DNA of 64,000 bases from Malacoraja senta. Lineage: Eukaryota. The notes under the pieces are model-generated. The model ran no database searches, was not told where the DNA came from, and saw only the letters and a program-made list of their open reading frames with translations. Position numbers and translations under genes: made by a program. The stretch is from positions 12,154,001 to 12,218,000 of the forward strand of contig CM075991.1 of NCBI GenBank assembly GCA_038087875.1. Direction: 5' to 3'. Shown piece after piece: positions 7,801-38,145 of the stretch (the first letter of the stretch is position 1; the number at the start of each line of letters is the position of its first letter).

Positions 7801-10800
7801 GTTACTGAAAATAGAAATGCGTTTGTAGGGAAATAAAGCACTGAAACAGACCCTTTGGCCCTTCGAGGCCACACTGAGACTCAGTCACCTATTTACACTG
7901 ATCCTATTTTAGCTGCATTTTTTAGATCTGGGAGGACACCAGTGGAAATCCAAGCAAACATAAGAAGAATATATAAACTCCAGCCGAGGTCAGTATCAAA
8001 CCCAGGTCTCCGGTGCTTTGAGGCAGCAGCTTATACTGGCTGTACTGCTTAGAGTAATAGAGTGATACAGCATGGCAAAAGGCCCTTCTCCCAACTTGCC
8101 CACACCGGCCAATATGTCCCAGCTACACTAGTCCCACCTGTCTGCGCTTGGTCCATTACCCTCTAAACCAATCCTATCCATGTACTGGTCTAAATGTTTC
8201 TTAAATGTTGGGATAGTCCCTGCCTCAACTACTTCCTCTGGCAACTTATTCCATACACCCACCTCCCTTTGTGTAAAAAAGTTACCCCTCAGATTCCAAT
8301 TAAATCTTTTCCCTATTCCTATTAAACCTTAAACCTATGTACTCTGGTACTCGATTCACCTACTCTGGGCAAGAGACTCTGTGCATCTACCCAATCTATT
8401 CCTCTCATGATTTTATGCGCTTCTAAAAGATTACCCCTCATCCTCTGCGTTCCAAGGAGTAGAGTCCCAACCTATTCAACCTCTCCAACCTCTCCCTATA
8501 ACTTGCATGCTTTCTCTCTCTACCTTCCCTCACTAACATATCAACCAGACAAGTTCATCAACGTTATGCTCATGGCATCGAGCTATCAGAAATATTATCC
8601 ATGTCCCTCTCCATCACACCCACCCTTTCTACAAATTGTTTTCTCTCTTTACCAACCTCTGAGGAAGTAACTTTAACCTGAATAATTAACTGTTTCTCTT
8701 TCCACAGATAATATTTTTATTTTTAATTTCCAGCATCTGCAATTTTTGTTTTAAATTTTCATCCCAAACCCCCTCTGATCACAACATTTACAGAATTTAA
8801 ATGCAAAAAAAGTTTTACTGACTCATGAGATGGACTAGTGAGTGGGAGATTGGAACCTTCACGTGGACCGCCCTGTTTCGATGAATGCAATCAACCTAGC
8901 GTGCACAATCAAATAAGATCAAATAGAACAAGTTGTCCTACAACTTTAGGCTGTGCATGCCATACGCAAGGAGAAGAGGATGGACTAGTAGCAAGCATGG
9001 ACAACTAGCAGTCTCCTTCATACCTCTCGCCATTTACTTACCTTAATTTATATTGTAAATGGCATTTTCTTTGGCAATCAGCACCAATCCTTTATCCCTA
9101 CCTTTCCAATCTTTTTTATCTTTAATGGTATTAAAACCTTTCCCAATGGTTTCTTCAAGCAAGGCCAACACAGTCAATGCTAGGACTGCACACACCCGCC
9201 CGTTCTATGGGCGGGGGGGGTGGGGGGTTGGTTACTTCTGTGGTTTATGATGCCACGCAATGAGAAAGCTCATCATCAGCTGGCTCATTGTCCTTGCCTG
9301 AGGAAGTAAAGAAACTGGCTCATTCCTGCTCATGGCTGTTCTGCAGGGAATCTTACTGGAAGGTACAATGTGCCTGGTGAGGGCAGATCTAATCGACCCA
9401 TTGTCACCGGCATAAAACCTGCACCACTCAAAGTGCAGGAGGGCTGCAAGTAGAGGTGACCCCCCTCTCTACACCTGCCCTTGCTACCAATCCCACCAAA
9501 TGTTAATGCCAATAGAACGAACTACGTATGAAAGCATTGTTAGGCCTGGGGAAAGAGGATTTCCAATGGGTGTTATGGAATGGTGGGAGCACATGAAGGA
9601 AAAGGGACCATAGTCAATCTGGGTGTCCATAGTCTGTGGACACCAAATCAGTACTTGCACAAAATTAACTCCAATATGTGACATACTTTGTGAAATGTCC
9701 TCAGCTTTGTAGATCTTAAGAATGAATGTGACCCATCGAGAGAGAACACCAGTTGGCTGCAGCAGATTACTCTCCACGTCATCCTCTTCATTTGTCCCTT
9801 TCTTGTCTAGCTGGTGCAACAAACAGATTTCAATTAGAAAACAAAATACATTCACGCTTCTTTTAAATTCAGCAAAGACAATGGGAAACATGGAATTAAT
9901 CCAGCTCTTGTTGTGGTTTATTGTAATGTAATATTTAACGTAATGGTTTATCGTAATGTAATAGTTCCCCTTCTCTCCGCTACCACTGCCTGAGCAGCTC
10001 AGCAACTCAGTATTCACGAGCCTTGTTCAGGTTCTTCCTTTCTTTCTCTCTTTCTCTGTTTTTTTGTGTTTTTTTTCCTTTTCAAAAACTTTATTCGACA
10101 CAATCATATGATACAACACATCAATACATAATCAAAAGATACATTATATCAAAACAAATCATTATAGTACAACAGTACATTCATTATTTACGATACTCTC
10201 AACCCCACGTGGTGACCACGGCCCACGGAAGGCCTCCAGAGTCCCCGTGGACACCGCATGTTCCCGCTCCAGGGACACCCGTGCACGGACGTACGCCCGG
10301 AAGAGGGGCAGGCAGCCAACTCTAGCCTCACCGTCGACCGCCCGCTGCCTGGACCCGCGAATGGCCATCTTGGCCAGGCCCAGGAGCAAACCGACAGGGA
10401 GGTCCCACCCCCCCACTTGGCTCTCCCCACACCCTGCCTTATGCCCAAACACTAGAATCGTGGGACTAAAATGCAACCAGAACTTAAGGAACAACCCCTT
10501 CAGATATTGGTACAGGGGCAGTAGCCTCGCACACTCCATGTACACGTGGAACACGGTCTCTTCCTCGCCACAGAAAATACACACGGCGGACGAGCCCGTG
10601 AACCTACTCAAAAGTTTATTGCAAACCACCGCTCCGTGCAACAGTCTCCACCCCAGGTCCCCAATGTAATGGGGGACAACTCCCTTATAGAAGGACCCCC
10701 ACCGGGGACCTCCCCCGCCTTCAGGTGGTAACACCGTCCGCCAAGGTGTGTCAGGACGGGAAACGAAGGCAAGGAGGTGCAGAATGTGCAGGAACATCCG

Positions 10801-13800
10801 ATACAGTGTGCGTCTCTTCGCATCACAAAACGGTATGCTGATCATCTCAGAAAGGCGACTCAGGTTGTGTGGAGCCGGTGCCCGAGAAATATCCCGGAGC
10901 CTAGGCCCGATGAGCAGATCTGACTGAGCGGGTGAAAGCTCAGCCAGAACCACTCTAGGCGCGCGCCTCTCCTCGACACCCGCCATGACTGGGCGAGGAC
11001 CGGCCACTCCCGCAGCCGCAACATCCCCCTCCCCTCGTGGAGCAACAAGCTGGCTGAAAACAGCCAAATTCCTCACTCTGAGCACATCCCGGTAGAAAAC
11101 AGGCAAACCCCTTAGGGCGGGTCGACTGATGCCCGCCACCGGGAGCCGCGAGACCTCCCTAGGCAACGACCCCGACGGAAAAAGTACGTGGCCAGAGCGT
11201 GCCATCTGGGGGGGTTCTCTACATACATATACCTCCGCAGAGTCCTGAGAAGGAGAGCCGCCACCTGGGTACGCACGCATACCAAGGACTGACCGCCCTC
11301 CTCTAACGGGAGACTCAGGACTGCTGCAGAGACCCAGTGCTTCCTATTTCCCCAGAAGAAATCTACCAGCTTCTTCTGTAGAGCATTTACAAATATGGAA
11401 GGTGGGACAAGAGTAGCCAGCCGGTACCATAACATGGAGGCCACCAGCTGATTTATGACCATCACCCTCCCCTGAAAGGAAAGAACTCCAAGCAGGCCCG
11501 ACCAGCGCCCCAGCCGGGCAACCACTTTCGTCTCCAACTCCTGCCAGTTCGCCGGCCAAGCATCCTCAGTGGGGCTCAGGTAAACCCCCAGATAGAGGAG
11601 ATGTGTGGTGCTCCACACATACCTTGCCATCTCCTCCGGCAGGGAATCCACCTGCCACTGACCCACTATAAGATCAGAGCACTTACTCCAGTTAATCCTG
11701 GCAGAAGTTGCAGCTGAGAAAATCTCCTGACAGTCACGCATCCTCCGCAGGTCACCAGGATCAGTGAACATAAGGAGTACATCATCTGCATATGCCAAAA
11801 GAACCACCTCCACCCCCGGGCCAGGTAGGGCCAGGCCTGTCAACCTCCTCCGAAGAAGACACAGGAACGGCTCCACACAGACCGAGTACAACTGACCCGA
11901 CATGGGGCACCCCTGACGGACCCCCCTCCCAAAATGAAAGGGAGCCAACAACGCACCATTAACCTTCACAAGGCACTCCGCTGCAGCGTACAAAAGCCGG
12001 ACACGGGCCACAAAATGCGAGCCAAATCCAAACGCTTGCAACGTCCCGAATCGGTAATCATGCTCTACCCTATCAAAAGCCTTCTCCTGATCAAGAGACA
12101 GAAAAGCAGCTGACTGACCAGTACCCTGAGCTAGATGAATCAGGTCCCTAACCAGGTGGATGTTATCCTGAATGCACCGACCAGGGACTGTGTAGGACTG
12201 GTCAGGATGAATCATTTGAGACAGCACAGAGCCCAGGCGATTTGCCAGTGCCCGTGCAAAAACTTTATACTCTGTACATAGGAGAGAGACCGGCCTCCAG
12301 TTCTTCAACAAGCGGAGTTCGCCCTTCTTGGGCAGCAAGACAACAACTGCCCTGCGCCATGAGAGGGGCATCTCCCCGGCCGCCAGACTCTCCCCCAGAA
12401 CCAACATGTAATCACCCCCCAGGATATCCCAGAAAGCTCTGACAAACTCTACCGTCAACCTATCCAGCCCGGGGGACTTACCCTTCCTGAGCTGATACAA
12501 TGCACGAGTCAATTCCTCCAAAGATAAGGGGCCATCAAGAAGATCGGCCACCTCCCTATCAACAGTCGGTAGACCCTCCCACAAGTCCTGCTGAGCCTCC
12601 CCGTTGAATCCACCTGCGGAGAACAGGGACCCATAAAAGGACCTGACCACCGCACTGATCCTCTCCGGATCAGTGACAGAGGAGCCATCATCTGCGAGCA
12701 GCTCTACGAGCTGTTTGCGGGCTCCCCGCCCTTTCTCCAGAGAGAAAAAGAAAGGCAAAGCTCGGTCCAGATCTTGCATCATCTGGACCCGCAACCTCAC
12801 GAAAGCACCTCGGGACCGCTCAAGCAGCAGGTTCCTCAAGGCTTCCTTCTTCTCCTGAAACTCTCCCCATTCACAGGAGTCATCACCAACCCGACCCAGG
12901 CGAGACTCTGCACCCAGTAGCTCCCTCTCAAGCCTCTCGACCGCTGAGTCCCGCCGTCCGGTCGACCCCCACGTATACTCCTTACAAAAGAGACGAATGT
13001 GAGCCTTCCCCACATCCCACCACTGCCTAAGGGAAGAGAAGCACCTCTGCCTCTCTCTCCACTTCACCCAAAACCGACTGAATGACTCCCGGAAACACCG
13101 ATCCTCCAGCAGCCGGTTGTTAAAGTGCCAGTACGCGGACCCAGCCCGAGTGCGCGCCGGATTAAAGTCCACACGCACCAGACAGTGGTCCGAACACGGC
13201 ACCAACCGCATTGAGGCCGCTGAGACACGGGAAACAAACGCTCGGGAAATGTATATTCGATCAATACGGGAACCATCTCCCTCAGACCTCCGCGAAAAAG
13301 CAGTGGAATCCGGGTGGAGGTTCCGCCACGCATCAACCAGCTCAAAGGAGTCAATCAAACCTCTCAGCTTCTTCCACTACAGCAGGGGCACACTGAGTAC
13401 CAGAACGGTCTCGTGCCTCAAGTGTGCAATTAAAATCCCCACCAAGGAAGACACACTCTCCCCTATCAATAGTGCTCAACAGAGCAGTCACCTCCTGAAT
13501 TAGGCCGGCCTGCATCGTACCGGAGCTAGGGGCATACACGTTAATGAAATGCAACGGCATGAAATCCAGGCTCACGGCCAGATGGAGCAAACGACCTGGC
13601 ACAACTTCTTGCACTTTTAGAATATTTAGCAGGAAATTCTGGGCCAACAGAAAGGCCACCCCACTCGAATTCGAGCTGAGATTGCTCATGTAGACCCCCC
13701 CTTCCCACTCCAGTCTCCATGTAGGTTCATCACTAACAACTGTATGCGTCTCCTGCAGAAAACACACTGCAAATCTCCCCTCTTTAAGGACTGATAAAAG

Positions 13801-16800
13801 CTGAAATCTACGAAAACTCGCTCTACTCCCGTTTAAGTTTAATGTTGCTACTGTGAATGTGCAGGCACACTAGATTGAAACCCTCACACTCCCCGCAGAC
13901 TCAACAACTCTCTGTCTGAGGAACACCAAAAAGTCCCCAAACTGGCTCTTCTCAGTCAGGAAGATCACTACCCTTGTTGCCAAGAATAGCCTCGGGAGTC
14001 TTAATCAAAACTGGCAGATCAGCCCACCGTCTTTTAGCAGCTTCCATTCTTGATCTGCTGGTATGGCTTGTTTTTAGGAATTTTTGAACCTCACGGATAT
14101 CACTTGCATGAAACTCGACCTTGGAGCCAGGGCACTCAGCCAACTCACTCGCACCTGCATCAACAATCTCACCACCACAATGGTCAAGGTCGTTGTCAGC
14201 AATCGAAAGACCAGAACTCTGAAAGTTCGTTAACTCCACTACTCAAAACGGCCTTATCACTCTCCCCCTCCTCCAGCACGACACCACCCCCAGGATCAAT
14301 GCTGGGGAAGGGTCCCGAAACCCCTGACTGCAACAGGCAGCCCACTGGATGGCTGGGCACCTGCACTCTACCATCACCCTCTACGTCTGGGCCTGGGGAA
14401 GAAAAAACACTAGGCACCCCCAGGGCCTGTGATACACTGGCACCCCCCGGAATCTAAAAGGAGATCACCACCCGAACTAGCCCCGACCTCCACAGCACCT
14501 ATAGCATCCCCTCCACTGGCAACACCCAGAGGCTCTCCACTTTCTTTTAAACTCCCCCCTCCCAACTCAGCCGGCGAGGCAGCACACCCCCCATTACCTC
14601 CACTGGCTCTGATGCAGAGCAGAGACTGGAACACGAAAGCCCCCGACCCACCCCCCTCGGGCTGACTCTGCTCATCCCCCGTCTCAGGGGGCACACTACT
14701 AAGGGCGCCTACCCCATCATCTGACGTGCCAACACCCTCAATAGGCCTCTGAAACGAGGGGACCTCCTCCGACCCAGAGGACACACACCCAGGAGAGCTA
14801 ACCTCACCACCCGATGAGATGAAGGGACATCCACCCGCCCATAGGACACAACTCCAGAGGAATCAAACCCATCACCCGGTTTTGTAATCCCCTCGGGAGA
14901 ACCCTGAAATGGAGGCTCAACCTCCAACCCGGAAGACACCAGTTCTCGACCACCAACCACATCAGTGGTAGAAGGTCTGGAAAAAGTCAACCCCCTAACT
15001 TTGGACTCACGCCCGTGCTCTTCCTCGCTAGGCCCAAACCTCCTTTTTATCCCACTAGCATGCGGCGGTACGGTGACCTCCATAAAGGAAGAGTCTTCCT
15101 CCTCCCCACTACCCCCAGCCACTTTACCACCCGCATGATTTACCATCCCTACCCCCACCTGAACCACCTCAGCTCCTTGCTGGGCCACGGCAAGTGCACT
15201 CTGGAGCTGACAGGCGCCCCTTGAGTGGTCTCAGATTGCGTTGGACTCACTTGAATGGGCTTTCTCCTCCCCTTCCTCCTCTGCAGCTCCCAATTCCCCT
15301 CCCCCTCATCATCCTCCTCCTGCGCCTCACCATCAGCCACCACCCCCTCCACAGGTTCAGGACGTAGGGGGCGGGGGCCATCTCTGCCCCGGGTCCCCAA
15401 GGCGGAACTTGCAGCCCCAGATGGGCTATCACTGCCGCCCTGGATCACCGAGGCCGAACTAGCAGCCCTAGCCAGGTCAGCAGTACCACCCCGTGCCACC
15501 GAGGCATGACGAGCCACCCCGGATGGGCCAGCATTGCATTCCTGGGCCGCTGCACTAGAACTTCTAGCAGCGACCCCGTGAAGAAGACACTCCCTATGGA
15601 GATGTCCAAATTCCCCGCACACATGACACCTTGCCTTTCCCCAACTCCAATACACAGTTCTACGGAGACCCTTCAACTCCACCTCGAAGCTCCCCTCAGC
15701 GCCTTCGCCCTCACCCACCTTCATGAACACCCTCCTCTTAAAACTGAAGATCCCTCTTTCCTCCGGGTCCCCCCTGGGATGCATGAGCCTAAAGCACTTA
15801 GACCGCACCTCCCCAAACTTAGACAGGTGTGGAATAAGTGCTGCATCCGAAATATATGTGGGGCAACTCCGTAGGAGAACCGGTCTCACCCTAGATACCC
15901 ACGGATCCACCTGTATGTGGACCCCCCCCCACTGAGATCCCCCTCTCCAACGCTATGGCCACATCCTCCCGGGTCTTTAGTATCATCTCCACCTTTCCCC
16001 TTTCGAGCTCGGAGACAACAGCCCGCCCCCCAAGAAGGTCATTCATGGCCTTGGTAATTGCTCCCCTGGACATCTGGGGCCCAGTTTGGACCGAGATACC
16101 AAACCGGTTCCAATCCGTCAACATGAGGCTCATACTCATTTGGCCTCGCATCCGTCGGTGATGCCACCCCTGCGTAGCTCCGGTTCTTCAGCCGCGCCCC
16201 AGCCATCGCCATCCTGACAGAGGCACCAACCAGCTCCTGGCACCCCAGCAGCTCAGCTCCTAGTTAAATCCCAGAGACAGTCACAGTCACAGACAAGTAG
16301 CAGAAATCAGAAGCCTCCAGCTGAAGCAGGAACGTCCCCAAGTACGTCCACAGCCGAGAGCAGCTCTTGGGAAGCTCTATCCCCGTCTTGCCGGAAGCAA
16401 GTACCATCTTCACATTAAGCCAGGCAGCCGCCTGTGCAAAATGACTTTAGGGCAGAGAAACGGTGTTAAAAAAACAACGACAAAAACACGTCAATCTTCG
16501 TACCCTCGATCTCCAGGCACTCTTGGCAATCCGCCAACGACAACCGCACCCTCGACAATGGAAAGAAAACTCAGGAACTTTCACACTCATGGAGAATTCC
16601 CAGAGCAGAGAAAAGTCTCAACGGTCCAACAATAAGTTAAACTATGAAGCCCCTCTGCCTCTGTTCCTTCTCCAGCAACAAAATCCTTGAAAGGCTGCGA
16701 CAAACCCTCTCAACTGCAGAGCTGAAAAAGCACAACCTCTCTCTCTCTCTCTTCCCATTAACCTATCAACCAAACAGCGTCACCAAACAGTTTATTACCA

Positions 16801-35300: not shown

Positions 35301-38145
35301 AGTGACTTTTTGTTCAGCTTCCTCCATGCCTGCAATCCAGACACTTAAATTTTTTTTTTAAACCTTCCAACTTGCATTAGTTCAGAGAAAAATCCTTATT
35401 CCCTACAACTGCACTATGTGCCATGTGCAAAATTCATGCCATTTTCACATCTAAGCTATTGTGACAGCACTTCTCAAACCCTCTACCCCGGGCACCAAGA
35501 GGGCAAGGACAGCAGGCTGATGGGAATATCATGAGTTATATAGTATGGAAACAGGCCATTCAGCCCCAACACATCCATACTAACCAATGGAAATATCTGG
35601 ATATGAAAATAAATTGTTGTTCCTTCTCCATTGTTCAGTGTAAATACTGGAACACTCTACCCAAAGCATTGCCCACATCCTGAACAAAAAAGGAAAAACT
35701 AGATAGACACAAAATGCTGGAGTACCTCAGCGGGACAGGCAACATCTCTGGAGAGAAGGAATGGGTCGAGAGCCTTCTTCAGACCCGAAATTGCAGACCT
35801 GAAACATCACTCATTCCTCTCCAGCGGTGCTGTCTGTCTTGCTGAGTTACTCCAGCATTTTGTGTCTATCTTCAGTGTTAACCAGCATCTGCAGTTCCTT
35901 CCTACGAAAGAAAAAAGTACATTCTTAATTCTATTGAAGCTTCATGTGAGGTGGTCCACAGTGCTCGAAGGTGAACAACTCTAGCTGCTCTTCCTGGATA
36001 ACTTAACTTTCCCATCTCTGAAACCATGGTGCAAAATCTTCACATGCTCCTCTAATGCCATAACATGCTTCCAATAGCGCGATGTGTGGAATTGGAAACA
36101 ATATTTCATCTCAAATCTATTTTTTAAATAAAAGTTGAGGATAACCTTTTGCTGTCATACTCAATGATTCCATTAATAAAACAAGGGATGCAAATGCTTT
36201 TCTGCACAATCTTCTTATCCTTTCTTGTCCTTTTGCAGAGATTCAAGTAAAAGCCCCGGGAAATGATCACAGTGAATGGCGGTGCTGGCTCAAAGGGCTG
36301 AATGGCCTACTCCTGCACCTATTGTCAGACATTCAGCTGGTTTTCCATGTCTTTGAGTGATCAATTCAAAAATAGCATGGAAAGGTTAACCTGGATAAAA
36401 AATACCTTCAAAGAAAACTTGAACAAATTTTCACCCTGCCAAAATAATAATTAAAGAGCAATTTGCAAAACATTCTGGGGAAGCTCCTCCAGGTAACTCA
36501 TGGGATTTCAATTCTAAAAGGATTACATTTTTTAATTGGGTGCAAATGTGTTGTTTTTTACATTACATCCCAAAGATCAGAATTGCTCTGACTTTCCTCA
36601 ATTACTTTCTTAACTGTCTGTCCAAAGATAATACTTCACAGCCCTCCACCATCAAATCTCTAGACAGTGAGTTAAATTTGGACCACCTGATAGTTTACAA
36701 TGAAAATCACCTTGTAAAGTATTAGCTCACCAACGCTGTGTAGCCTGATCGATCAGGTGAATTAGGATCGGTCCCTTTTTCTAGAAAATTCTGCACCCTG
36801 CCGAGTTCACCATTACAGGCTGCTGACCAGATGCCTACATCGAGGGAAGAGGAAATATTCAGGCAGGTAATTTCCCAGTTGTAGAGCAAAGAGAACTTGC
36901 TCCATGTAACTCTCCCATTGAAAAATGTACACTTCCTGCCCAATTACAAATTAGCTACAATCACATGCAACAAATGCCACGACCTAAACAGCCTGTTCCT
37001 AGACCGCTGGGGACCATACATTCTCTCCTCACCCATGATGCCCGTAAAGTTGCTTATATTTATATTGCTGACTAGAGCCTTTATGGAGAGAAATTTGGCC
37101 TAGGAGAGTGTGAAACTGTCGCTTTACCCATCTTGACAATGGATCTGTACAACATTATTGGCATCTCTCCAGCGCTTTGAGGTGTCTGTTGTTTGAAGAA
37201 TATTAGAAGGACTATCACTGCTGCCTAGTGAACCATGGGCGTGAAAGCTATGGGCTTTGGATTAGAGGTCTTAATCTTGGCGATTACTTCTATTTTTCAG
37301 TAAAACTATGTTTTCTCAGGCGGATAATCGCTTACTCAGGACACAGAAGATTCCAAAGAATTATTAGGTAAACACAAAATGCTGGAGTAACTCAGCGGGT
37401 CAGGCAGCATCTCTGGAGAGAAGGAATGGGTGACCTTTCGGGTCGAGACCCGTCTTCAGACTGATGTCTCGACCCGAAACCATCCTCGACCCGTCACCCA
37501 TTCCTTCTCTCCATAGATGCTGCCTGATCCGCTGAGTAACTCCAGCGTTTTGTGTCTACCTTCGATTTAAACCAGCATCTGCAGTTCTTTCCTACACCAA
37601 AGAACCATTAGATGAGAAAGAGGGGATTTGGTGCTGCCGTGGCCAATATTTATCCCTCTAATATCCTCAGAGGTACAGCATGCCCATGGAACACCCAGGA
37701 ATATTCTGTGATTCACAAAATCAAATTTAAAGTGAAAGTTCTACCTTTAATTCAACATGCATATGTAACCGTGTAGATAAGCTGCCCACAGAGGGAATGT
37801 TGAGGAGAATTCAATGCAATGTTTGACGCTGTCAACATTACTGATATACTGGACGGGGTGGAAGATTGCAACCTTCACCTGGTCCGCCCTGTTTCGACGA
37901 ATGCAATCAATCCGGCGTGCACAATCAAATAAGATCAAATAGAACAAGTTGTCCTACAACTTTAGGCTGTGCACGCCATGCAAAAGAAGAAGAAGAAAAT
38001 ATACTGGACCACTCTGGGGAAGTCAGAGCTTGAATGGTTTTGTACCTCTGTCAAAATCCATTTCCTCTAATGTCTGCTGTACACTTCTTGGGACTGAGTC
38101 AATAGAACAGCAGGTACAATCCATACTATGGCTAGCCGAGGCCAT
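32228..38145 (-). CDS. ANKRD39: Ankyrin repeat domain-containing protein 39 (4 coding exons, 187 aa)
   Basis: Exons 38046-38145, 36731-36834, 34863-35066, 32228-32383 splice in frame. Diagnostic N-terminus [21 protein letters not shown] followed by ankyrin repeats ([37 protein letters not shown]). Confidence 0.93.
33040..33246 (-). mobile_element. CR1-type LINE fragment
   Basis: [16 protein letters not shown]...[13 protein letters not shown]. Confidence 0.8.
34610..34637 (-). ncRNA. Minimal hammerhead ribozyme core in a Penelope-derived repeat (best-preserved copy)
   Basis: CUGAAGA-A-GGGU-CUCG-ACCC-GAAACGUC. Confidence 0.6.
34863..35066 (-). CDS. ANKRD39: ANKRD39 coding exon 3
   Basis: [68 protein letters not shown]. 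Confidence 0.93.
36731..36834 (-). CDS. ANKRD39: ANKRD39 coding exon 2
   Basis: [35 protein letters not shown]. Confidence 0.92.
37365..37597. repeat. Inverted pair of Penelope-derived terminal repeats (fold-back)
   Basis: ~37367-37460 is the reverse complement of ~37467-37561. Confidence 0.8.
37855..37908 (+). ncRNA. HDV/CPEB3-like self-cleaving ribozyme motif
   Basis: P1 GGGGUGG/CCGCCCU, P2 GAUUGCA/UGCAAUC, P3 ACC/GGU, L3 UUCACCU, J4/2 CGAA with the catalytic C at 37898. Confidence 0.82.
37855..37998 (+). mobile_element. ~140-bp non-autonomous retroposon with a 5' HDV-like ribozyme (copy 2)
   Basis: 11-bp TSD atatactggac (37844-37854 / 37999-38009), (AAG)n tail, homologous end to end with 8840-8978. 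Confidence 0.9.
38046..38145 (-). CDS. ANKRD39: ANKRD39 coding exon 1
   Basis: [33 protein letters not shown]; a strong acceptor at 38195 suggests a non-coding upstream exon. Confidence 0.9.

Follow-up and report, generated by a model that had tools for sequence, protein, structure and literature searches.

Long interspersed elements (LINEs) whose RNA is processed by a ribozyme, and the short elements that parasitize them, are known from insects (R2 and RTE) and from trypanosomes, and the mammalian CPEB3 ribozyme is a single conserved locus within an intron. In the available parts of the sources cited here and below, R2 short internally deleted elements (SIDEs) (PMC3414825) and NARTc/L1Tc (PMC3383444, PMC3185411) are described as non-autonomous non-long terminal repeat elements in which an HDV-like ribozyme (HDV, hepatitis delta virus) at the 5' end frees the RNA from a co-transcript, and RTEs are reported to carry HDV-like ribozymes and to be without promoters of their own (PMC6765202). 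The principle of ribozyme-headed non-autonomous elements, and that of RTEs with HDV-like ribozymes, is already known. According to our analysis, positions 37855 to 37998 of a 64,000-nucleotide (nt) stretch of the Malacoraja senta genome (assembly GCA_038087875.1, contig CM075991.1, positions 12,154,001 to 12,218,000; "the window" denotes this whole stretch) are one 144-nt copy of a non-coding mini retroposon family. We consider it quite probable that this family is a LINE-dependent mini retroposon in which a 54-nt CPEB3-type HDV-like ribozyme lacking the helix P4 stands in the place of an RNA polymerase III (pol III) head.

The crystal structure of the CPEB3 ribozyme assigns U20, U21, C22, A23, C24, G25, and U26 to the loop L3, with a weak P1.1 made of C22-G37 and U21-U38 and with J1.1/4 absent, and in both the HDV and the CPEB3 ribozymes G25 forms a trans wobble with U20 and binds Mg2+ (10.1101/2022.09.22.508989). 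Minimal HDV-like ribozymes without P4 (drz-Mtgn and theta) have been described from metagenomes and phages, where they lie next to tRNAs, and their origin and function are called open in that source (PMC10879173). A ribozyme of another class, the hammerhead, is carried by schistosome SM-alpha, which resembles a short interspersed element (SINE), is thought to be transcribed by pol III, and occurs in tandem (PMC6765202).

The window copy, which lies on the plus strand with all its parts, is bounded by an exact 11-nt target-site duplication, atatactggac, at 37844 to 37854 on the left and 37999 to 38009 on the right. Its first 54 nt (37855 to 37908) are predicted to form a P4-less HDV/CPEB3-type ribozyme with a cleavage site 5' of G37855, a prediction drawn from the sequence, the Rfam HDV model, a strict descriptor, a covariance model named R1, and cross-family covariation. 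P1 joins GGGGTGG (37855-61) to CCGCCCT (37884-90) through 7 of 7 pairs, the first of which is G37855-U37890, and the junction J1/2, AA, separates the 5' strands of P1 and P2. P2, the pseudoknot helix, consists of 7 pairs between GATTGCA (37864-70) and TGCAATC (37902-08), while P3, with 3 pairs between ACC (37871-73) and GGT (37881-83), closes the 7-nt L3 TTCACCT (37874-80), whose C37876 pairs with G37891 in P1.1. After P1 come GT (37891-92, the G37-U38 strand of P1.1), a 5-nt linker TTCGA (37893-97) in the place of P4, and, directly before the 3' strand of P2, J4/2 CGAA (37898 to 37901), in which C37898 is the candidate catalytic base. The 3' module (37914 to 37977) is framed by a long-range 10-bp stem, GGCGTGCACA (37914-23) with TGTGCACGCC (37968-77), and has an inner hairpin (37946-62) inside its variable interior; a pre-tail ATGCAAA and an (AAG)n tail (37978 to 37998), delimited by the sequence and by flank comparison of copies, complete the element. 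The minimum-energy fold contains P1, part of P3, and the 3' stem (z = -2.0), the pseudoknotted P2 being outside the reach of the program. The preliminary description, made from the sequence before this analysis, had placed the 11-bp duplication, P1, P2, P3, the 7-nt L3, GT, CGAA, the 10-bp stem, the inner hairpin, and the tail just where we find them, whereas its "minimal P4" has to be withdrawn, as the linker forms no helix.

The genome-wide search for copies envisaged in that description was run on the window's own genome (1.94 Gb) and returned at least 650 first-look candidates for the element. The 40 that were scored all begin at the first bases of the element, 38 at nt 1 and 2 at nt 2. 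A full-length query favors full-length copies; a second search used the 3' half alone, and the 30 loci fetched start at nt 1 in 25 cases, at nt 2 in 2, and at nt 5 in 1, one further copy being 5'-truncated at nt 26 with a duplication of its own and one having an internal deletion. The 5' ends are uniform, and the flanks of different copies are unlike right up to the GGGG start. Target-site duplications of the family measure 8 to 14 bp, and flanking repeats of at least 10 nt (detected by a script, one mismatch allowed) were found in 54 of 73 copies. In 68 aligned copies, divergence amounts to a few per cent, and the haplotypes differ in having A or G at nt 8 and C or G at nt 25. Among 45 distinct heads, 35 open P1 with the G-U wobble. 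A comparison of head and body divergence was left out of the argument, as the sampling of the copies biases it. The window holds a second, older copy at 8840 to 8979 (plus strand), 90% identical and with its first base lost or changed, flanked by a 10-nt duplication, atggactagt, at 8830-39 and 8980-89. The family is a young, non-coding retroposon, and the copy number, the duplications, and the uniform 5' ends bear out the earlier view of it as a non-autonomous retroposon and not a piece of a LINE.

Sequencing runs labeled with two other organisms supply 98 and 26 contigs, respectively, whose flanks become unlike at 37855, and words of the element turn up in runs that bear at least eight different organism labels; all sequencing runs examined were contigs, which carry no RNA-end or expression-level information. 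One metatranscriptome contig spans 37885 to 37978 and was not counted as proof of transcription.

The structural evidence for the head comes from other ribozymes of the same genome. The genome-wide search with the Rfam CPEB3_ribozyme model (RF00622) gave more than 100,000 rough first-look candidates, of which 59 were scored, with 60 matches listed; 39 of the 59 exceed the 35-bit cut-off, all end to end and with a best score of 64.2 bits, and none of 14 control genomes exceeds it. These matches are dispersed over many contigs, unlike the single CPEB3 locus. The 12 that were read fall into about five families with differing P1, P2, and P3 sequences and P4 lengths, and nearly all share a core of L3 TTCACGT, GT after P1, and C-G/T/C-A-A before the 3' strand of P2. 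Loci L125, L126, L127, and L128, with further matches, represent CPEB3-type classes of 89, 79, 74, and 70 nt. A second mini retroposon family of about 215 nt was recovered by its RF00622 match at loci L129 to L132 (G000 C13:8595780-8596204, C2:95332728-95333152, C2:193290288-193290711, and C6:36061434-36061854); its CPEB3-type head also lacks P4, scores 37 to 44 bits on RF00622, and has the linker TTCCA followed by CCAA, its end reads ...CGATAAGAAG, and in three copies duplicated target sites can be recognized by eye.

The covariance model R1 was built from three copies of the RTE-like LINE described below, one copy of the 89-nt class, and two copies of the second mini family, thereby excluding all copies of the element under study, and the window was searched with all filters off. 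The top hit runs end to end over 37855 to 37909 (30.1 bits, E 3.2e-6), its start being the first base after the duplication; the second is the other window copy, at 8839 to 8893 (16.9 bits, E 0.012), and the best hit outside the family reaches 10.7 bits. In a model-made alignment of 14 sequences from about six families, counted on the full pseudoknotted structure of 18 pairs, 95.9% of cells are paired; shuffles give 74.1%, with 0 of 500 attaining the observed value, and sliding the partners gives 36 to 48%; the 14 sequences are related within families, and the independent events are nearer six than fourteen. Eleven of the 18 pairs have changed on both sides across families, including 3 of 7 in P1 and 6 of 7 in P2. 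P2 was left out of the model's structure, so that the alignment is unfitted to it, and it nevertheless pairs in 97.9% of cells, while the C of J4/2 is kept in 14 of 14 sequences. These comparisons show that the fold is homologous or analogous to the ribozymes heading RTE-like LINEs, and the HDV-like head proposed at the outset gains from them both an end-to-end match and helices P1, P2, and P3 that covary across families.

The likeness to the mammalian CPEB3 ribozyme (RF00622), as far as the available part of the structural report describes it, comprises L3 UUCACGU, the C22-G37 and U21-U38 contacts, the absence of J1.1/4, and J4/2 CGAA. With the same numbering, the core of L3 UUCACGU, G37-U38, and no J1.1/4 is present in 32 of the 68 aligned copies, in which L3 reads TTCACGT; it reads TTCACCT in 33, the window copy with its C25 included, and has A at nt 25 in the remaining 3. 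The consensus that the preliminary description had derived from two copies has G at nt 25 and so agrees with half of the family, though not with the window copy itself. In contrast to CPEB3, the ribozymes found here occupy the 5' ends of mobile elements that are dispersed, and the head of the mini element is without P4, has other P1, P2, and P3 sequences, and falls below the Rfam cut-off.

Several observations speak against a functional ribozyme in the head and have to be weighed here. No P4 helix is present, and P1.1 amounts to one canonical pair plus a U-U. The Rfam HDV model (RF00094) gives the head only 11.9 bits (E 6.5) against a gathering cut-off of 50, its alignment running end to end in the register of the structure first described; RF00622 gives no match to the mini element head at E values up to 10, and Rfam at gathering thresholds returns no match in the whole window. 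The covariation anticipated for P1, P2, and P3, although present across families, is absent within the element's own, where 0 of 18 pairs changed on both sides among 74 heads; these heads are paired in 97.3% of cells and are too alike for covariation, so the structural support comes from the other families only. Finally, the C25 and G25 forms have both been amplified, about equally, which means that either cleavage persists in the C25 form or it is not a strict requirement.

On these grounds the head could be regarded as a relic, taken from a retrotransposon ribozyme and no longer cleaving for want of P4, with a weak P1.1 and with C25 in half of the copies; the uniform 5' end would then reflect a fixed transcription start at an internal promoter, as with Pr77 of L1Tc, or full-length copying of a short RNA. 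We deem this improbable, though it is the alternative that survives best. The equal success of the C25 and G25 forms and the failure of the head to reach the cut-off of either RF00094 or RF00622 agree with it, the sequencing-run matches are contigs that say nothing of RNA ends, and the first 77 nt of L1Tc and NARTc are reported to be promoter and ribozyme at once (PMC3383444, in its available part). However, the four differences that distinguish the heads at subfamily level all fall at sites that the fold tolerates, namely nt 8 (in J1/2), nt 25 (in L3), nt 32, where G to A turns a U-G into a U-A pair, and nt 45 (the N of CNRA). Moreover, the second P4-less mini family keeps the same core, and HDV-like ribozymes without P4 are a recognized class (PMC10879173, in its available part).

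A far less probable reading takes the element for an ordinary SINE whose head looks like a ribozyme by chance. Its appeal lies in the ease with which such folds can be matched, since a loose descriptor proved unspecific, with 131 hits in 244 simulated windows, i.e., about one per two 64-kb windows of random sequence. A strict descriptor, designed by us from features of the HDV-like fold and from the available part of a published structure (10.1101/2022.09.22.508989), demands 7 of 7 pairs in P1 with G-U first, at least 7 bp in P2, 3 of 3 in P3, C at position 3 of L3, G after P1, and CNRA before the 3' strand of P2. Its only hit in the real window is 37855, and 245 simulated 64-kb windows, searched on both strands, yielded a single hit. 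To be held against our own use of it, the descriptor was written after the candidate had been seen and many windows were scanned, and its statistics alone are insufficient. Chance is countered further by the E value of R1 together with a start exactly at the first base after the duplication, by the covariation with five other families, which includes the pseudoknot helix that the model did not fit, and by the 7-nt L3 and G37-U38 of the G25 half, identical to the CPEB3 core. That the element is a random 3' fragment of a longer LINE, the counter-case raised in the preliminary description, can be dismissed with near certainty, since 27 of the 30 3'-anchored copies reach nt 1 or 2, all 30 head-anchored loci are ordinary copies with the same short body, and patterns for a head or a 3' end joined elsewhere returned 65 and 40 hits, of which the 6 and 23 that were read are family variants only, i.e., indel forms, a shorter subfamily, a subfamily with a MITE-like insert (MITE, miniature inverted-repeat transposable element), and one 75-nt stub, and no LINE.

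The shorter and the longer subfamilies, numbered 2 and 3, come from a pattern search with 40 hits, for which a reversed-pattern control gave 0. Subfamily 2, a form of about 120 nt whose 3' module has had its interior replaced, supplies 18 of these hits. All 18 were read; 12 possess the head and 6 are 5'-truncated. This form has an internal T4 run, and its J4/2 is CTAA. The same CTAA makes up about half of the read depth in two other organisms. Subfamily 3 (5 of the 40 hits) is a form of about 435 nt with an insert of about 290 nt inside the 3' module, which is MITE-like, has terminal inverted repeats, a TTA duplication, and T4 to T8 runs, and lies at locus L109 together with L114:1-260 (G000 C4:29318674-29319176, minus strand) and likewise at L110 to L113; the insert was later copied along with the element. 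Six copies of this subfamily start within 2 nt of G1, and others are 5'-truncated within the insert. Part of the insert is a very abundant repeat, with 12,538 first-look candidates at 97% identity. Both halves of the 3' stem and the pre-tail motif are kept in all three subfamilies, while the interior varies, and truncation rises with element length, as target-primed reverse transcription gives.

Pol III terminates at stretches of at least four T. Subfamilies with internal T4 (subfamily 2) and T4 to T8 (subfamily 3) runs have been copied through to the tail many times, and these T-run subfamilies with intact 3' ends point to a polymerase other than pol III. ARAGORN finds no tRNA in the element, and matches to Rfam small-RNA families other than HDV are at chance level (E 0.44 to 9.3, searched up to E 10), all far below their cut-offs. 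To judge from its sequence, the element is therefore without a pol III-type head, as had been said of it with respect to tRNA, 5S, and 7SL heads. Measured against a classical SINE, it is short and non-coding and has duplications and a LINE-type tail, but lacks the head derived from a pol III RNA.

Of the 60 listed RF00622 matches, 11 are followed, 29 to 113 nt downstream, by matches to the beginning of a single reading frame that encodes an APE-type endonuclease and a reverse transcriptase. In four copies of this LINE the flanks diverge at the ribozyme G1 or within 2 nt of it, and its ribozymes score 52 to 64 bits on RF00622; relative to known ribozyme-bearing RTEs, the ribozyme of this LINE is of the CPEB3 type and exceeds the Rfam CPEB3 cut-off. 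The frame opens with the endonuclease, and its protein relatives carry Exo_endo_phos, Exo_endo_phos_2, and RVT_1. Two genomic copies retain uninterrupted frames of 1008 and 1014 amino acids (aa), which match a 995-aa relative with RVT_1 and Exo_endo_phos_2 at 60% over aa 5-994 and 14-994, respectively. The 3' untranslated region extends about 35 nt after the stop codon and ends ...CACGAAAAGAAGAAGAAG with (AAG)4, after which unrelated sequence follows (one copy). In the available part of their description, lepidopteran RTEs have a single frame of about 1000 aa with the endonuclease preceding the reverse transcriptase, an extremely short simple-repeat 3' untranslated region, and variable duplications (PMC2887409). 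The LINE found here has the same traits, with a single frame of about 1010 aa in that order, a short simple-repeat 3' untranslated region, and variable target duplications, and we call it RTE-like, a clade assignment made from architecture alone.

Of the two partners suggested in the preliminary description, an RTE-like LINE with a 5' CPEB3-type ribozyme and an (AAG)n tail has thus come to light, whereas Ingi/Vingi elements were not seen, no search having been dedicated to them, and it is likely that an RTE rather than an Ingi element is the partner of the mini element. The mini element ends ...TACGCAAGAAGAAG, and it, the L129-L132 family, and the LINE all end in CG, 1 to 3 bases, and (AAG)n. 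The autonomous LINE with both termini in common that had been expected was only partly recovered, for the ribozyme type and the (AAG)n tail are shared but the sequence of the head is not. Three facts tell against the partnership as we propose it. The 3' identity of mini element and LINE is confined to about 12 nt (approximately ACG.AA(GAA)n) plus the tail, which makes the shared 3' end the weakest link of the partner argument; P1, P2, and P3 of the mini element head all differ from those of the LINE, whose P4 is missing from the head; and at least one further RTE-like family exists, with 49 to 53% identity to the same 995-aa protein. As the head helices differ and the 3' likeness is short, the mini element did not arise by simple internal deletion from the LINE family found. 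When we inspected (AAG)n runs in about 334 kb of genome sequence, we detected no other LINE 3' end.

Other candidates were considered and rejected. A LINE in the window itself (10033 to 13869, minus strand) was discarded as a partner because its 3' end, near 10033-10095, has an A-rich tail besides an AATAAA signal; its Pfam domains, in broken frames, are APE (13351 to 13869), RVT_1 (11112 to 13376), and a weak zf-RVT (10162 to 11343) below the cut-off. Locus L123, which might have been an internally deleted LINE, is a LINE interrupted by another element, and L087 and L082, which might have been longer elements, are copies of the element interrupted by another repeat. The 5 kb upstream of one subfamily 3 copy (L114) contain 9 reading frames, none with a Pfam match.

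The interruptions of the last two loci (L087:600-1464 and L082:1590-1683) lie at one motif of the element, with a duplication of atcaaatag. In one case the inserted repeat forms a long perfect palindrome of about 860 nt; in the other it amounts to a 95-nt unit of that sequence. In another copy (L058:1584-2115) the tail passes into an (AAG)n/(GAG)n microsatellite longer than 500 nt. Tails of the element may seed microsatellites, by analogy with what is reported, in the part of the source available, for RTEs in Lepidoptera (PMC2887409). The 75-nt stub mentioned above (L115; G000 C1:355371613-355372138, minus strand) consists of a complete 54-nt head and 21 unrelated bases and is flanked by a 7-nt repeat, the normal 3' module and the tail being absent. 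As regards the surroundings of the window copies, an open frame on the minus strand (9484 to 10026) gives a weak match to FerI, a ferlin domain (21.6 bits, E 2e-4, under the 28-bit cut-off), and is probably a host exon, the sole one recognized in the window. The two copies of the element, being on the plus strand, lie opposite to the FerI-domain frame and are hence daughter insertions, not obvious source copies.

The following mechanism is consistent with these features. A source copy would be transcribed within a longer transcript, probably by read-through of RNA polymerase II. The ribozyme would fold during transcription and cut just 5' of G1, as suggested by the fold and the uniform 5' ends, leaving an RNA that starts at the first base of the element. 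An RTE-like LINE would then supply the reverse transcriptase, which would make use of the 3' module, with its long-range stem and ...ACGCA(AGA)n, in target-primed reverse transcription and so leave the 8- to 14-bp duplications; duplications and tail are observed, while the identity of the partner is our inference. In the RTE-like LINE, which has the same (AAG)n tail, a full-size ribozyme of this type would process the 5' end of the LINE itself.

When compared with R2 SIDEs and NARTc, as described in the parts of those sources available, the mini element is likewise non-autonomous, with an HDV-like 5' head and a 3' end that would be served by the reverse transcriptase of a LINE. In SIDEs and NARTc, however, the 5' and 3' sequences are those of the LINE itself, whereas the mini element shares with its LINE the ribozyme type and core, about 12 nt, and the tail; its two termini are not those of the one LINE family whose ends were read. 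Its insertions are also dispersed and not specific to ribosomal DNA, and its ribozyme is of 54 nt without P4. With the drz-Mtgn and theta ribozymes, again as far as their source is available, it has in common a double pseudoknot without P4 of about 50 to 60 nt, but those come from metagenomes and phages, while the 54-nt form here heads an animal retroposon. SM-alpha, on the same partial basis, is likewise a short retroposon, non-autonomous and equipped with a self-cleaving ribozyme, but the class is different (hammerhead versus HDV-like, with cleavage predicted here).

Text and sequence-string searches of the literature, in which subscription titles are thinly covered, returned no CPEB3-type ribozyme heading LINEs or mini retroposons, and text searches returned no P4-less form in an animal mobile element, an earlier annotation in a repeat database being possible. 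An RTE-type retrotransposon lineage seems to live on in this genome, given the open frames and the ribozymes scoring up to 64 bits on the CPEB3 model. We tentatively raise the possibility, on the basis of the same L3, P1.1, and J4/2 core, that the mammalian CPEB3 ribozyme is a domesticated 5' ribozyme of such an RTE-type lineage, and, in the same tentative spirit, that a 54-nt P4-less form suffices in vivo to set an RNA 5' end. Dozens of mobile ribozymes above the curated CPEB3 cut-off offer a concrete and testable route for the origin of the mammalian ribozyme. For the family itself, the finding would mean a SINE-like class, in a vertebrate-sized animal genome, in which a predicted self-cutting RNA replaces the pol III head. 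It would also mean a naturally minimized 54-nt P4-less HDV-like ribozyme, as predicted, with a clear job, in a class so far tied to metagenomes and phages, and, if this is true, a minimal HDV-like ribozyme would for the first time have a role assigned to it in an animal.

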